A DNA stretch of 64,000 bases, taken from the NCBI GenBank assembly GCA_937968125.1, contig CALBUI010000166.1:2293-66292 (forward strand). Reading direction: 5' to 3'. Positions 48,094 through 53,992 of the stretch are shown here, in pieces. This DNA is from an uncultured Anaerolineales bacterium. Lineage in GTDB: Bacteria; Chloroflexota; Anaerolineae; Anaerolineales; UBA4823. Both the position numbers and the translations under genes were made by a program. Each line of letters opens with the position of its first letter. Position 1 is the first letter of the stretch. The notes under the pieces were generated by a model. It saw only the letters and a program-made list of their open reading frames with translations. It was not told the DNA's origin and did not search any database.

Positions 48094-48488
48094 TAATAGT
48101 CCCTTCTGACGAAAATTTAGTTCGGCAACCACACATTATCACATAACTGTTGTGCAAGTTTCTATCATCAGCTTGCACAGTATTGTTTTAATAGTGTGTC
48201 CTTTTTCAAACCCAGGTGAACTAACCCAATGCGAACGAACAAATTGGAATTGCAACGGGCAGCTTCAATTGACAGCTACACCTTTGAGTTTAATGACCCT
48301 AACATGATAACAAATAGGAAAACCGTGCGCGACAAAGAATACCCCTCCCGGATCGGATCGAATCAGCCATACTGAAATTACACAACTTAGTTAAGTGCTC
48401 TTCCTACTTCTTCTGAAGGATGAGAGGAGAAACTCAATACATTTGTCACAGCGGGAAAAGTGACATATAATACTAATACTATATTCAT

Positions 48489-48654
48489 AATTGGGTTATA
48501 AATCTTATGTAAAACTACCCAATTCGTAACTGACATCATAGGGGGGTAGCGGGTAGTCGTATTCCCATTGAAAAACAGAAAGGAGGTTGCCTATCAGCTT
48601 ATAGAAGAAAAAGATCGCCCCCAATATCATTGTAGAAAGTGTATCCGGATACAC
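48489..48654 (+). promoter_or_regulatory. conserved upstream/leader region of the hexahaem gene (inverted repeat, TATAAA box, 16-bp palindrome)
   Basis: AATTGGGT (48489-48496) ... ACCCAATT (48517-48524) flank GTTATAAATC. GTGTATCCGGATACAC lies at 48639-48654, 14 nt before the ATG. The block is duplicated at 50230-50395. Confidence 0.5.
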
Positions 48655-48667
48655 ACAAGGAGAATGC

Positions 48668-49730
48668 TATGAAACATAAACATCTTTTGGTGGTGCTCTT
48701 GCTGCTGGTAGTCATGGCTCTGGCTGCCTGCGCAGGCTCCCAAGGCGAGCAGGGCGAGCAAGGTCCTCCCGGTCCCCAGGGTGAGCAAGGTTCCCCAGGG
48801 CCTGAAGGCCCTCCTGGACCTGAGGGTCCGGCAGGCGCCGCCGGTGCCGATGCCGAAATGGGCGACCTGACCTGCACGGAGTGCCACAACGACGGCACGG
48901 AGCTTGCTGGGAGGGCAACCGCCTGGGCTGATTCCGTGCATGGAATGGGTGAAGCTTATGTGCGTGGAACCCGTGCCAGCTGCGCTGGTTGTCACTCCGG
49001 CGGCGGCTTCAGCGCCAAGGTGGCTGCAGGTTTGAACCCGGACGAGGTTGAAGCAGGGGATCCAAACCCCACTCGCCAGGACTGCCGTGCCTGCCACCAG
49101 ATCCATGTGACTTACACAGGTGAAGACTGGGCATTGGAGACCGAAGACCCGGTGGATTTCTATGCTTTTGAAGGTGTGACCTACGATGGCGGCGATGGCA
49201 ACCTGTGCGCCAACTGCCATCAGCCAAGGCGCGGAATTGCTGAGCCAGATGCCGATGGCAATATCGAAGTCACCAGCACGCACTGGGGACCCCACCACGG
49301 TGGGCAGGGCTCCATGTTGATGGGCGTGGCTGGCTCGCCTGATGTCGAAGGCAGCCCCAGCTCGCATGCCACAATGGTGGAAGATACTTGCGTTGCCTGT
49401 CACATGGGAGAGGAATATAACCACTCCTTCGAACCTGAGGTGGAGCGCTGCCAGGAATGCCACACTGATATGGAAAGCTTCGATGACACCGGCTTGCAGA
49501 CCGAGGTCCAGGAGAAGCTGGATCAACTGGAAGCAGAGCTGCTTGCCAGGGGTTGGCTTGATGAAGAAGGTCACCCGGCGGTAACGTTCGTTCCCGCTCC
49601 AGAAGCTTACGCCCTATGGAACTGGATCTACATCGCCCACGAGGATGGCAGCCTGGGAGTCCACAACCCGGCTTACACCAGGGCATTACTCGACGCATCA
49701 CTGGAAACATTAGGGTTGGGAGGGCAGTAA
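48668..49730 (+). CDS. hexahaem c-type cytochrome lipoprotein with collagen-like Gly-X-Y stalk
   Basis: MKHKHLL signal, lipobox LAAC, 13 GXY triplets and 6 CxxCH (CTECH, CAGCH, CRACH, CANCH, CVACH, CQECH). RBS AAGGAG precedes ATG 48668. The track ORF start at 48639 lies inside the conserved leader. Confidence 0.85.
48734..48850 (+). repeat. collagen-like region, 13 uninterrupted Gly-X-Y triplets
   Basis: GSQ GEQ GEQ GPP GPQ GEQ GSP GPE GPP GPE GPA GAA GAD, starting two residues after the lipobox Cys. Confidence 0.85.
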
Positions 49731-50409: not shown

Positions 50410-52608
50410 ATGAAACACAAACATCTTTTGGTTGGGCTCTTGCTGCTGGCAGCTGCCATGGCTCTGGTAGCCTGCGGCACCCCCAGCCCGACTGCAGAGG
50501 CCACACCCTGTCCCGAAGCACCGCCCTGCCCGGACTGTCCTGAGGCACCAGCTTGCCCGGACTGCCCAGAATGTCCAGAGCCGGAAGTTGCGTTGGTACC
50601 CTTCGAGGAAGAGTGGGCCAATTCCCCCCACAACGATGCGGAAGCGGAAGCTTTCACCCACTGGGATGAGGATGATCCTGCCGAGATTCCCCCCAACTGT
50701 GCCAAGTGCCACAGCACTCCGGGCTACATTGCCTTTATGGGCGCTGATGGCAGCGAGTTTGGCGTCATTGAGGGACCCGCCCCGATCGGCACCACCGTCG
50801 AGTGCGCGGCCTGCCACAATGAAGCTACCTTGGATCACGACAGCGTGGTCTTCCCCTCCGGTCTTGAATTGACCGATATGGGCGACCAGGCACGCTGCAT
50901 GGAGTGCCACCAGGGTCGTTCGTCCAAGGTGACCGTGGATGAGAACATCGCCGAAGCAGTTGGCGAGGATCTCGACACGGTTAGCGAAGACCTGGGCTTC
51001 ATCAACATCCACTACTACGCGGCCGGCGCAACCCGCTACGGAACCGAAGTGAAGGGTGGCTATGAGTATGATGGCCTGGAGTACGATCCCCGCTTTGACC
51101 ACGTCGAAGGCTACCAGTCCTGCATCAACTGCCACGACATGCACACCCTCGAGCTCAAGCTTGAAGAATGTGCAGTCTGCCATGAAGGCGTAGCCAGTGT
51201 CGAAGACGTTAAGGCGATCCGCTTCGTCGGCTCGCTGAACGACTACAACGGCAACGGCAACGTCGAAGAATCGATCATGGCTGAGATGGCTGGCCTGCAG
51301 GAACTACTCTACCAGAACATCCGGGCTTACGCCGCGGAAGTAGCTGGCTCGCCGATCGTTTATGATTCGCACGCCTATCCATACTTCTTCATCGACACCA
51401 ACGCCGATGGCGAAGCCGGTGAAGATGAAGCCAACTACGGAAACCAGTACGCTTCCTGGACCGGACGCCTGCTGCAGGCCGCGTATAACTACCAGGTCTC
51501 GCAGAAGGATCCCGGCGCATATGCCCACGGCGGCAAGTACATCATCCAGCTGCTCTACGACTCGATCGCCGATCTGAACGATCAGGTCGCCAGCCCGGTT
51601 GACATGACTCCCTTGCACCGCGAGGACCCGGGTCACTTCGCCGCATCTGGTGAACCCTGGCGCCACTGGGATGAGGATGGTGAAGTTTCGGCCAGCTGCT
51701 CCAAGTGCCACTCGGCTGAAGGTCTACCCACCTTCCTGACTACTGGTGGAGATACATATCCACAGCCGGTCGCCAGCGGCTTGAACTGCGCTTCCTGCCA
51801 CGACGATCTGACCACCTTCACCCAGTACCCCTCTGAGGAAGTTGAATTCCCCAGCGGCGCAGTGGTGACGTTTGAGGATCCCACAGCCAATCTGTGCCTC
51901 AACTGCCACCAGGGTCGCCAATCCGGGCCGGGTGTGGAGGCGCGCATCGTTTCTTCAGGTGCTGCTGATGATGAAGTATCTGCATCGCTTTCATTCAGCA
52001 ACCCGCACTACTTCGCTGCCGGAGCAACGCTGTTCGGCACCGAAGTTCAGGGCGCCTATGAGTTCACGGGCCAGTCCTACAACGGCCGCTTCATGCATGT
52101 CCAGGGTTTCCAGGCCTGCATCGAATGCCACGACACCCACGAGCTGAAGGTCAAGGTCGACCAATGCGGTACCTGCCACGGCATCTCCAGTGAAGAAGAA
52201 CTGCATGATATCCGCATGACGGATGTCGACTTCGATGGTGATGGCGACACTTCTACAGGTATCGCAGTGGAAGTGATGAACGTCAATGATGCCATCTTGG
52301 ATGCCATCTACGTCTACGCTGCTGAAGTAGCCGGTACACCGATCGTCTTCGAAAGTCACTCTTACCCCTATTGGTTCGTTGATACCAATGGTGATGGCGT
52401 GGCTGACCCAGATGAAGCTCAATATGCCAACCAATACAATGCATGGACCCCGCGCTTGCTGCGGGCGGCATACAATTACACCTGGGCTCTCAAGGATCCC
52501 GGCTCGTACGCTCACAATGGGCTGTATATGCTCCAGGTTCTCTACGACACCCTGCAGGATATCGGTGGTGATGTCTCTAGCATGACCCGCCCCGCAGTGG
52601 CCCAGTAG
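50410..52608 (+). CDS. decahaem c-type cytochrome lipoprotein (2 x pentahaem internal duplication) with N-terminal Cys-Pro hinge-like repeat
   Basis: MKHKHLL signal, lipobox LVAC, and CPEAPPCPDCPEAPACPDCPECPE. 10 CxxCH (CAKCH, CAACH, CMECH, CINCH, CAVCH, CSKCH, CASCH, CLNCH, CIECH, CGTCH). The two halves are alignable by eye. Confidence 0.85.
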   Translation: MKHKHLLVGLLLLAAAMALVACGTPSPTAEATPCPEAPPCPDCPEAPACPDCPECPEPEVALVPFEEEWANSPHNDAEAEAFTHWDEDDPAEIPPNCAKCHSTPGYIAFMGADGSEFGVIEGPAPIGTTVECAACHNEATLDHDSVVFPSGLELTDMGDQARCMECHQGRSSKVTVDENIAEAVGEDLDTVSEDLGFINIHYYAAGATRYGTEVKGGYEYDGLEYDPRFDHVEGYQSCINCHDMHTLELKLEECAVCHEGVASVEDVKAIRFVGSLNDYNGNGNVEESIMAEMAGLQELLYQNIRAYAAEVAGSPIVYDSHAYPYFFIDTNADGEAGEDEANYGNQYASWTGRLLQAAYNYQVSQKDPGAYAHGGKYIIQLLYDSIADLNDQVASPVDMTPLHREDPGHFAASGEPWRHWDEDGEVSASCSKCHSAEGLPTFLTTGGDTYPQPVASGLNCASCHDDLTTFTQYPSEEVEFPSGAVVTFEDPTANLCLNCHQGRQSGPGVEARIVSSGAADDEVSASLSFSNPHYFAAGATLFGTEVQGAYEFTGQSYNGRFMHVQGFQACIECHDTHELKVKVDQCGTCHGISSEEELHDIRMTDVDFDGDGDTSTGIAVEVMNVNDAILDAIYVYAAEVAGTPIVFESHSYPYWFVDTNGDGVADPDEAQYANQYNAWTPRLLRAAYNYTWALKDPGSYAHNGLYMLQVLYDTLQDIGGDVSSMTRPAVAQ
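50509..50586 (+). repeat. Cys-Pro-rich hinge-like segment (six CP dipeptides in 26 aa)
   Basis: CPEAPPCPDCPEAPACPDCPECPEPE, located where the paralogues carry the collagen-like stalk. Confidence 0.8.
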
Positions 52609-53062: not shown

Positions 53063-53992
53063 TTATTCAGTTCTCAACCGCGTCCCGCAGGAGCGGCAGA
53101 AACGGTCACCTGGTCCAGCCCGTTTTCCGCACTGGTGGCAGTAAATGGCGCTTCCCATGGCTACCTCACCTTCCTCCCGACTAGGTGCCTTGTGGTGGCG
53201 GCGCTTCGTCGGTTCTGGCTCTTGTCTGCCCATGCGCCAATACCAGAAGCCACCACCACCGATCAGTACTAATCCAAGGCCAACCAACATCCATACCCAC
53301 CACTGTCCCAGGTTGAGCAGGCTGCTGGTCCCAGGCGTGATCGTCGCGCTGGGCTGGATCTGGAAGTTCTCCACGCTCAAGGCATCGGATTCTTTCTGAT
53401 AACTCATTAAGATGTCAAAAACTGAACCTTGATCCAGCGCTCCAACATCAATTATGTTGTAGGTGAAACCATTGGAATCTTGAATTATCCTGCCCTGGGT
53501 GGGTGTCACGGTGACATCCGTTGCCCCCAGGGGGTGCTGGACCTGGAGTGTCAGCGCGTCCACCACGTAATCTCCCGGCCAGGTGAAATCAAAGCTGCGC
53601 TGCGCCCCGTCCTTTACCAGCCTGGGATCATAATACTCAAACTGGATCGCAGGTGTGGTGGCGATAAAAGATACATCCATCCAATCGCCCATCACCTGGG
53701 TATCGTAAACAACATCGGCTACCGACCGGGCATCCGGACCGACTGCGACCACTGCTGGAGCGCCAGCCTGCACCGGCATACGGAATGTGATCTCCGCAGG
53801 CAAACTCACCTCTGGTGACAGCATAGCTTTGTAAATCACCAGCATACTGGGATTGTCATATTCCGGCCAGAGATCGACGACTAAAGTTTCTAGACTGGGT
53901 GACTCTTGTGCTTTTGTTGCGGGGACAAAAATAATTAAGGTGAATAAACAAATAAAGACGATTTTCTTTACCAAGCGCCGTTCTCCATCCAT
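53063..53992 (-). CDS. hypothetical single-pass membrane protein: signal peptide, about 200-aa extracytoplasmic domain, TM, cytoplasmic zinc ribbon
   Basis: N-terminal signal, TM WWVWMLVGLGLVLIGGGGFWYW, and C-terminal YCHQCG...FCRSCG. Confidence 0.55.
   Translation of the reverse strand: MDGERRLVKKIVFICLFTLIIFVPATKAQESPSLETLVVDLWPEYDNPSMLVIYKAMLSPEVSLPAEITFRMPVQAGAPAVVAVGPDARSVADVVYDTQVMGDWMDVSFIATTPAIQFEYYDPRLVKDGAQRSFDFTWPGDYVVDALTLQVQHPLGATDVTVTPTQGRIIQDSNGFTYNIIDVGALDQGSVFDILMSYQKESDALSVENFQIQPSATITPGTSSLLNLGQWWVWMLVGLGLVLIGGGGFWYWRMGRQEPEPTKRRHHKAPSREEGEVAMGSAIYCHQCGKRAGPGDRFCRSCGTRLRTE

Follow-up and report, generated by a model that had tools for sequence, protein, structure and literature searches.

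In a 64,000-nucleotide stretch of DNA from an uncultured Anaerolineales bacterium of the phylum Chloroflexota (contig CALBUI010000166.1, assembly GCA_937968125.1; referred to below as the window), the open reading frame (ORF) at 50410−52608 on the plus strand encodes a 732-residue lipoprotein with ten haem-binding CxxCH motifs, which are separated from the lipid anchor by a stalk where each cysteine is followed by a proline. Among homologues, the number of cysteines in this stalk has changed many times but is almost always even. The explanation that we favour as a whole, with a probability of roughly 0.5, is that the protein is a lipid-anchored ten-haem wire held on a stalk whose cysteines are paired in disulfides, most likely within the same polypeptide chain.

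Domain structure of the decahaem lipoprotein

The protein starts with MKHKHLLVGLLLLAAAMALVAC, in which a positively charged n-region and a hydrophobic h-region lead to a lipobox of the type [LVI][ASTVI][GAS]C, i.e., the features that define a lipoprotein signal peptide. The lipobox is closed by Cys22, the predicted lipidated N-terminus, which is invariant in 57 aligned homologues, and we infer that the protein is lipid-anchored. The signal peptide is devoid of a twin-arginine motif, which suggests export through the Sec pathway. Cys22 is followed by the spacer GTPSPTAEATP and then by the stalk CPEAPPCPDCPEAPACPDCPECPEPE, where the cysteines occupy positions 34, 40, 43, 49, 52 and 55 (spacings 6, 3, 6, 3 and 3), each with a proline next to it. 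All cysteines of the protein belong to the lipobox, the stalk or the ten CxxCH motifs, and none is found elsewhere. The original prediction, made from the sequence of this gene, described a lipobox LVAC, a Pro/Thr-rich spacer and six Cys-Pro pairs at nucleotides (nt) 50509−50586; the translation bears out each of these elements, with residues 34−59 as the exact extent of the stalk. The same prediction recognized two alignable halves with five CxxCH motifs each. The peptide pairs quoted in its support are present, and residues 61−397 and 398−732 align with 44% identity over 339 columns (E-value 7e-99), i.e., the protein is a duplicated pentahaem unit. Minus-strand ORFs that overlap the gene (50374−51183 and others) were rejected: nothing supports them, whereas homologues of the plus-strand gene number in the thousands.

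Cysteine number and spacing in the stalk

Cys-Pro repeats are found in most Anaerolineales-type lipoproteins of the family. About 100 decahaem homologues carry them, with a linker of 25−62 (median 41) residues. The stalk is strongly biased in composition (34% Pro, 25% Cys, 21% Glu and Asp together, almost no Lys or Arg), and of 501 cysteines 476 are directly followed by proline, the residue after that being in most cases Glu or Asp. Cys−Cys spacings of 3 (202 cases), 6 (96), 5 (44), 9 (15) and 8 (11) are observed, while spacings of 1, 2, 4 and 7 never occur; 85% of the spacings are multiples of 3, as compared to 29% in shuffled sequences (maximum 37%). The inner dipeptide of the 213 CxxC motifs is PE in 79, PD in 69, PT in 18 and PA in 14 of these, but PP in only 2, i.e., CPPC is avoided in spite of the high proline content of the stalk.

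Of 98 unique Cys-Pro linkers, 96 have an even number of cysteines (2, 4, 6, 8, 10, 12 or 14). The exceptions are P0008, which has a Cys-to-Tyr change, and L074, where an extra cysteine in the globular part compensates. The linkers fall into 31 spacing architectures, of which 29 have an even count; one of the remaining two results from an artefact of lipobox parsing. In a neighbour-joining tree built from 107 globular domains, the cysteine number changed at least 25 times but its parity only once, so the parity rule is not a consequence of shared ancestry. Parity is also kept where cysteines were lost through point substitutions without insertions or deletions: C49 and C52 are replaced together in P0005/L001, as are the first and last cysteines in P0013. 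The sole consistent exception to the rule is a hot-spring lineage (L012, L059−L062, L068) with a Pro/Thr-rich tether, where a single cysteine (AAVCPF) is found directly before the globular domain.

Probable disulfide pairing within the chain

An excess of even cysteine counts is generally accepted as a mark of disulfide bonding in exported proteins (PMC2823432), so the even numbers seen here point to paired disulfides, and the stalk cysteines are probably bonded in this manner. Two comparisons at the sequence level indicate that the pairing is probably intrachain rather than interchain, and we rank this arrangement first among the readings of the stalk. A ladder of disulfides between parallel, in-register chains needs no parity, whereas pairing within a chain does. 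Furthermore, the rigid CPPC core of the immunoglobulin G1 (IgG1) hinge favours interchain bonds, whereas the CPSC core of IgG4 readily closes an intrachain bond (PMC4202688); the common stalk cores, CP[ED]C, resemble that of IgG4 and CPPC is avoided, which also favours intrachain pairing.

The likeness to the IgG hinge (CPPCP in IgG1, CPSCP in IgG4 and repeated CPRCP units in IgG3) consists of CPxCP motifs in a proline-rich connector that links an anchor to a globular part, and in both cases either interchain or intrachain bonds of the CxxC motif are possible (PMC4202688). The stalk differs from the hinge in being bacterial, acidic and lipid-anchored, and in that the x position is occupied by Glu or Asp, almost never by Pro. 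To our knowledge, immunoglobulin hinges show no even-number rule for their cysteines. Acidic, proline-rich rods that distance a domain from its membrane anchor are found also in TonB, i.e., the (Glu-Pro)n/(Lys-Pro)n spacer, and in trypanosome procyclin (EP repeats). These rods are cysteine-free and have a period of 2, whereas that of the Cys-Pro stalk is 3. The stalk blends features of the immunoglobulin hinge with those of proline rods of the TonB or procyclin type.

Haem module and relation to known cytochromes

Ten histidines outside the CxxCH motifs are invariant in the 57 homologues (residues 74, 201, 231, 245 and 373 in unit 1; 409, 533, 563, 577 and 702 in unit 2), which provides one candidate distal ligand per haem, so all ten haems are probably bis-histidine ligated. 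There is no motif of the CxxCK type that is associated with catalytic haems and no motif that lacks a candidate distal histidine. Bis-histidine ligation throughout would suggest an electron wire or conduit rather than an enzyme.

The AlphaFold2 (AF2) model of the full-length protein has a predicted local distance difference test (pLDDT) score of 87 and a predicted template-modelling (pTM) score of 0.81, and that of a single unit has scores of 87 and 0.86, respectively; the confidence is low across residues 23−62, i.e., the spacer and the stalk. In the models each unit has a haem-binding part and, after it, a helical sub-domain with long helices (residues 289−312, 352−366 and 375−390). The secondary structure assigned by DSSP consists of helices and short strands only, and the models contain no beta-barrel domains. 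In unit 1 the C-terminal helical sub-domain has two DxDxDG-like loops, and two such loops are found in each unit (residues 276−287, 328−340, 605−616 and 657−669, at about 51235−51270, 51391−51429, 52222−52257 and 52378−52416 of the window). Their sequences, DYNGNGNVEE, DTNADGEAGEDE, DFDGDGDTSTG and DTNGDGVADPDE, in which the Asp and Gly residues are invariant, look like structural calcium sites.

A Foldseek search of the PDB with one unit identified OcwA (E-value 6.4e-3, probability 1.00, template-modelling (TM) score 0.45, 349 columns), which was also the match of the full-length model (E-value 0.098), with NrfA entries far behind. Among the matches of either model there were no MtrC, OmcA or UndA chains, and OcwA is the sole meaningful structural match of these predicted folds. 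When the PDB was searched by sequence, both the protein itself and a 57-sequence profile returned haem-motif noise only (OmcS with an E-value of 0.0037 and ribosomal S14). OcwA from Thermincola potens (PDB 6I5B) is a nine-haem terminal reductase at the cell surface of a monoderm, and belongs structurally to the NrfA and not the MtrC family (PMC6703420). The decahaem protein would share with this multihaem cytochrome its exposure at the surface of a bacterium that has no outer membrane, and in both a globular haem domain precedes an NrfA-type helical bundle at the C-terminus. The two proteins have no detectable sequence similarity, and the nine haems of OcwA include two with open distal sites and one with His-Met ligation (PMC6703420), whereas in the protein discussed here a five-haem unit occurs twice in tandem and ten candidate distal histidines are invariant. 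The OcwA paper mentions neither a lipoprotein anchor nor a Cys-Pro stalk (PMC6703420).

In the original prediction the protein was likened to the MtrC/OmcA type, which the analysis does not support. The protein has ten CxxCH motifs in a 5+5 arrangement and a lipoprotein signal in common with MtrC, OmcA and UndA of Shewanella, and for all of these a role in the transfer of electrons to the cell exterior is presumed. However, its Pfam and NCBIfam matches are to generic multihaem families only; the OmcA/MtrC family TIGR03507 (NCBIfam) is not matched, and the score for PF22113 (MtrC-MtrF domains II/IV) is 27.3 bits, i.e., below the cut-off of 30. The beta-barrel domains I and III and the CX8C disulfide of the Shewanella proteins are both absent, the hosts belong to the Chloroflexota and not to the diderm Proteobacteria, and no porin-like family, as would be expected for an MtrA/MtrB partner, was found in the Pfam matches of the scanned ORFs of the window. 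The protein would work in the manner of the OcwA-type surface cytochromes of monoderms, and it is MtrC-like only in haem count and lipidation.

Distribution of tethers in the family

More than 4900 homologues were scored. Those from named genomes are mostly from Anaerolineales and other Chloroflexota, with outliers in Planctomycetota, Myxococcota, Aminicenantes, Abyssubacteria and metagenome-assembled genomes (MAGs) labelled 'Eubacteriales'; most homologues come from uncultured Anaerolineales that inhabit sediments and mats, and the identical decahaem protein recurs in several metagenome assemblies. Forms with one, two and three units, i.e., with 5, 10 and 15 haems, exist.

Among the homologues, the linker zone between the lipobox and a conserved VPFEEEW segment depends on lineage. 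In other Chloroflexota (L004, L005, L006, L008, L011, L015, L018; P0016, P0027, P0095) the Cys-Pro repeats are replaced by (E)VEVTR(V/I)VE(V) repeats; the tether is Pro/Thr-rich in the hot-spring lineage and poly-Gly in Abyssubacteria, and elsewhere in the family arrays of Big_2 domains, or Gly-rich segments with an extra domain, are found. The homologues from Planctomycetota, Aminicenantes and 'Eubacteriales'-labelled MAGs have only a short leader and no lipobox. In the Chloroflexota lipoprotein forms a tether of 25−76 residues, in one of several chemistries, is always present. Because orthologues with cysteine-free tethers exist, the cysteines are not needed for the cytochrome as such. The original prediction had held that orthologues devoid of the cysteines would speak against a role of the segment; such orthologues are found only outside the Cys-Pro lineage, and within this lineage the cysteines are strongly conserved.

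In a scan of 6379 ORF segments of at least 60 residues, taken from the window and 51 related genome loci (~0.9 Mb), the occurrence of at least four Cys-Pro pairs within 30 residues was confined to decahaem orthologues, which argues that the stalk is not a chance feature. As no other ORF of this sample carries it, the stalk is not a generic lipoprotein linker either; the remaining lipoproteins of the window have collagen or plain tethers. A HMMER search with the 31-residue stalk against 1.84 billion representatives found one fragment of the same protein, and a word-indexed search with a 72-residue composite stalk found seven insignificant matches, where low complexity defeats both searches.

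The Cys-Pro segment was also predicted to sit where paralogues carry collagen repeats, and this is what is observed. All 102 lipoproteins of the paralogous hexahaem family that were compared have 7−23 Gly-X-Y triplets in a cysteine-free stalk at the same position, with a median linker length of 38 residues as compared to 41 for the decahaem family. Stalks of bacterial collagen-like proteins (Scl1/Scl2, BclA and the paralogues) have in common with the Cys-Pro stalk the position after the lipobox and a repeat period of 3. They are composed of Gly-X-Y without cysteine, whereas the decahaem stalk is composed of Cys-Pro-X without glycine and is devoid of Gly-X-Y repeats. Collagen and Cys-Pro stalks are never mixed between the hexahaem and decahaem families; because the stalk type is tied to the cytochrome family while the lengths are alike, the data fit a spacer with a set reach. 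Assuming standard rises per residue, the stalk would span roughly 11−13 nm if it formed an extended helix.

Functional interpretation and alternatives

In the favoured explanation, the gene product would be exported by the Sec pathway and anchored by a lipid, and would transfer electrons through ten haems in two OcwA-like pentahaem units arranged in tandem; the ~40-residue acidic, proline-rich stalk would hold it at a distance of roughly 10 nm from the cytoplasmic membrane. The stalk cysteines would be oxidised in pairs to short intrachain disulfide loops (CPxC, CPx3C and CPx4C) that stiffen and protect the tether, and the cysteines would in that case form no cross-links between two chains. 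The partners of the protein would be the three collagen-stalked multihaem paralogues encoded in the window, which have stalks of similar length. These cytochromes would make up the outer stretch of an electron path outside the cytoplasm, which would receive electrons from the neighbouring quinol-oxidising complexes, alternative complex III (ACIII) and a bc-type complex, and lead, presumably, to or from an external redox partner.

A number of observations weigh against this explanation. Many Anaerolineae are anaerobes, where exported cysteines may stay reduced, and no gene for a Dsb or VKOR oxidase was seen in the window. The period-3 layout places all cysteines on one face of a polyproline-II helix, which is ideal for an interchain ladder, and an intrachain bond between residues i and i+3 requires departure from the ideal helix. 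The joint losses of cysteines conflict on connectivity: those of C4 with C5 and of C1 with C6 fit CxxC pairs combined with a long-range pair, while others fit sequential pairing. The single cysteine of the hot-spring lineage cannot pair within its chain. Also, the likeness to OcwA is modest, as seen from the TM score, and the AF2 models are haem-free, and gene context is the one line of evidence from which a function in extracellular electron transfer is derived.

The best placed of the alternatives, itself unlikely, is an oligomer resembling the immunoglobulin hinge, in which two parallel, lipid-anchored chains are joined by a ladder of interchain disulfides into a rigid homodimeric stalk. 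The CPxCP motifs in a proline-rich segment and the location of the cysteines on one face would fit such a structure, as would the collagen repeats of the paralogues, which constitute an oligomerising stalk. In addition, OcwA is a dimer in the crystal and elutes partly as such (PMC6703420), and the single cysteine found before the globular domain in the hot-spring lineage could bond only between chains. However, the ladder predicts no parity, while at least 24 of the changes in cysteine number kept it, and many orthologues are without any cysteine. Stepwise oxidation of adjacent cysteines during export, as known for DsbA, would favour intrachain pairs. The rigid CPPC core, which favours interchain bonding (PMC4202688), is the one that is avoided. 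The proposal, in the original prediction, of an oligomerisation or rigid-spacer device that functionally replaces the collagen stalk thus stands as regards position and length, while its interchain ladder is weakened by parity and the avoidance of CPPC.

Next in order, and rather improbable, is an array of reduced thiolates, where an acidic (C-P-[ED])n face would chelate a soft metal or sulfane sulfur, or would act as a dithiol/disulfide relay or switch beside the haems. The cysteines are paired, many in CxxC or CxxCxxC, and flanked by Asp or Glu, many hosts are likely anaerobes, and the active site of CcmH encoded in the window is also of the CPxC type (CPVC). In the 15-haem homologues P0023 and P0030, which have Big_2 domains, an N-terminal array that starts with CTGGECAECEQCTEGEVCDQCTEC extends over residues 30−82 with 15 cysteines; it is almost free of proline, while its acidity and Cys spacings (3, 5 and 6) are as in the Cys-Pro stalk. 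The occurrence of these arrays is in line with a thiolate array and suggests that it is the arrangement of cysteines, and not proline, that is conserved. On the other hand, the cysteine count varies between 2 and 14 without being confined to multiples of 4, the two-cysteine forms CPEAPPC and CPEVPEAPEC would be poor chelators, the stalk is membrane-proximal and located away from external substrates, Sec-type export argues against a pre-assembled Fe-S cluster, and the Pfam and NCBIfam scans showed no homology to metal-binding families. An Fe-S cluster on CxxCxxC was considered separately and rejected on account of the Sec-type signal, the variable cysteine number and the proline after every cysteine.

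A redox-responsive tether is a more speculative variant, which we consider quite improbable. Here, the CP[ED]C motifs would have potentials in the range of those of the haems and would switch, as in IgG4, between reduced, intrachain and interchain states, so that the reach, stiffness or oligomeric state of the wire would depend on the redox state of the envelope; together with the collagen-stalked paralogues, whose stalks match in length, the protein would make up a layer of cytochromes on stilts and conduct electrons across the wall of monoderm Chloroflexota.

Two further explanations are very improbable. In a homotrimeric stalk with interchain cystine knots, as found at some collagen ends, which would parallel the collagen trimers expected in the stalks of the paralogues, full pairing demands an even number of cysteines per chain, such that the parity rule fits an oligomer of odd order, and the period and length are like those of collagen stalks. 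However, cysteine cannot replace glycine in the collagen triple helix, a three-stranded Cys-Pro bundle is not known, and the predicted models suggest no trimer interface. A collagen-like helix with cysteine at the glycine position is, by itself, sterically impossible. The remaining explanation, of a plain low-complexity spacer whose cysteines are by-products of a slippage-prone repeat, draws on a 27-nt tandem repeat at 50508−50571 (2.4 copies, 78% matches), which encodes the CPDCPExxx unit and offers a ready mechanism for changes in stalk length, on the quite different tethers of other lineages and on the low AF2 confidence in the segment, but is countered by the retention of cysteines across about 100 distinct linkers in spite of synonymous (TGT/TGC) variation of their codons among orthologues, by the strict parity and spacing rules and by the restriction of the motif to decahaem genes in the related DNA.

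Collagen-stalked paralogues and a shared upstream cassette

Three collagen-stalked multihaem lipoproteins are encoded in the window, with 8 (30239−31501), 5 (39572−40906) and 6 (48669−49730) CxxCH motifs. In all three the Gly-X-Y stalk begins directly after the lipobox; the Pfam Collagen score is above the cut-off for the eight- and six-haem proteins and below it for the five-haem protein. The hexahaem stalk comprises 13 Gly-X-Y triplets (residues 23−61, nt 48735−48851; 30.8 bits against a cut-off of 27.2), and its haem core aligns with the pentahaem unit at 27% identity (E-value 5e-12), with one extra N-terminal haem.

The signal peptide and leader of the decahaem gene were predicted to be paralogous to those of the hexahaem gene, which is confirmed by the alignment. 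Two copies of a ~290-nt cassette, which comprises a promoter-like site, the leader and the signal peptide, are found at 48435−48731 and 50175−50475; they share 84% identity over the last ~250 aligned columns and diverge immediately after the lipobox codon. The cassette has an inverted repeat GTCACA..TGTGAC (50183−50208), under which, in the hexahaem copy, a promoter-like TTGTCA-17-TATAAT is found at 48443−48471, and a conserved hairpin AATTGGGG..CCCAAT (AATTGGG..CCCAATT). The window has just two occurrences of the motif TCATAATTGGGKTATAAATCWTATG. The palindrome GTGTATCCGGATACAC likewise has no more than two matches, even when 3 mismatches are allowed, as compared to 0.13 expected by chance. 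In L001, L002 and L003 the palindrome core GTATCCGGATAC is conserved in front of the corresponding genes, and the palindrome may be an operator of the LuxR-type regulators that travel with the cytochrome family. The shared leader has no match in Rfam, and its fold energy is unremarkable (z = -1.8).

Genomic context

The window is a respiratory island (Table 1). The order trihaem−hexahaem−decahaem is kept in L001−L003, and ACIII is found upstream also in L002.

Table 1. Features of the decahaem gene and of the surrounding window
Feature	Position	Strand	Basis or remark
Ccm system I	18798−27703	−	Pfam
Two HisKA_3/LuxR two-component systems	27806−29981; 36784−38941	−; +	Pfam
Collagen-stalked 8-haem lipoprotein	30239−31501		
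NapC-like, Rieske and cytochrome b genes (bc-type complex)	31614−36699		
Collagen-stalked 5-haem + class-I c lipoprotein	39572−40906		
ACIII (ActA-E + trihaem c)	40989−47939		
Collagen-stalked hexahaem, then decahaem	48669−49730; 50410−52608		
Hexahaem lipoprotein, paralogous leader and signal peptide	48669−49730	+	Pfam, alignment
Promoter and 5' leader cassette	50175−50409	+	intergenic alignment; hexahaem copy at about 48435−48668
Perfect 16-bp palindrome GTGTATCCGGATACAC, candidate operator	50380−50395	+	15 nt upstream of start; copy at 48639−48654
Ribosome-binding site AAGGAG	50398−50403	+	read from sequence
Lipoprotein signal peptide, residues 1−22, lipobox L-V-A-C	50410−50475	+	translation
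Pro/Thr-rich short spacer GTPSPTAEATP, residues 23−33	50476−50508	+	translation; pLDDT <50
Cys-Pro stalk CPEAPPCPDCPEAPACPDCPECPEPE, residues 34−59	50509−50586	+	translation, homologue comparison
Pentahaem unit 1, residues 60−400	50587−51609	+	CxxCH at residues 97, 132, 163, 238, 254
Pentahaem unit 2, residues 401−732 + stop codon	51610−52608	+	CxxCH at residues 430, 460, 496, 570, 586
Convergent membrane protein with cytoplasmic C-terminal zinc ribbon and extracytoplasmic domain	53063−53992	−	Pfam Zn_Ribbon_1

At the 105 loci that were compared, the recurrent neighbours are class-I c and b561-c proteins (34), LuxR regulators (20), HisKA_3 kinases (15), the zinc-ribbon membrane protein (13), NOX/FRE-like transmembrane reductases (11) and Rieske proteins (8). 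The zinc-ribbon gene of the type at 53063−53992 adjoins the decahaem gene in its 13 loci; a smaller zinc-ribbon membrane protein is encoded within the ccm cluster (23243−23794, minus strand). Pairs of HisKA_3 and LuxR genes are found near decahaem or pentahaem genes in L003, L004, L007, L008, L010, L012, L013, L023, L029, L033, L042 and L046.

Single-unit pentahaem homologues, most of which have an N-terminal membrane anchor, adjoin genes for NOX/FRE-like proteins at 11 loci (L036 99−1463, minus strand, and ten others; e.g., L033−L036, L041, L043, L046, L089−L095), and these proteins combine a ferric-reductase transmembrane domain with FAD and NAD domains. This arrangement suggests a direct electron path from cytoplasmic NAD(P)H to the pentahaem protein. 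The gene context as a whole supports a role of the family in extracytoplasmic electron transfer. In one report, Chloroflexota such as Ardenticatena are described as monoderm and capable of extracellular electron transfer (PMC5808234), and the host of the window is probably monoderm as well. Two further genes of the window, which encode a 2039-residue homologue of bacterial alpha-2-macroglobulin (4067−10186, plus strand) and a 1273-residue protein with DUF5060 and a collagen-binding-like domain (10833−14654, plus strand), are apparently unrelated to the cytochrome island.

Implications

The cytochrome family is large but uncharacterised, and the Cys-Pro stalk and its parity rule appear to be undescribed. 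A full-text literature search found no paper in which 'collagen-like' is joined with 'multiheme cytochrome', and the accessible portions of the Chloroflexota cytochrome literature that was found do not describe the decahaem family and its stalks. The function proposed for the stalk is deduced from sequence comparison.

How respiratory electrons cross the wall of bacteria without an outer membrane is poorly understood, and the known example, OcwA, says little on how a cytochrome is positioned. In the family described here, a haem module is mounted on interchangeable, family-specific tethers of ~40 residues, composed of collagen repeats, Cys-Pro repeats, EVTR repeats or immunoglobulin-like domains. 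The even-number rule is a simple sequence signature of disulfide pairing in a tether, and it offers a handle on whether the host organisms oxidise their exported cysteines. If the stalk were redox-switchable or oligomerising, it would constitute a new design principle for the positioning of electron conduits and for engineered tethered cytochromes.

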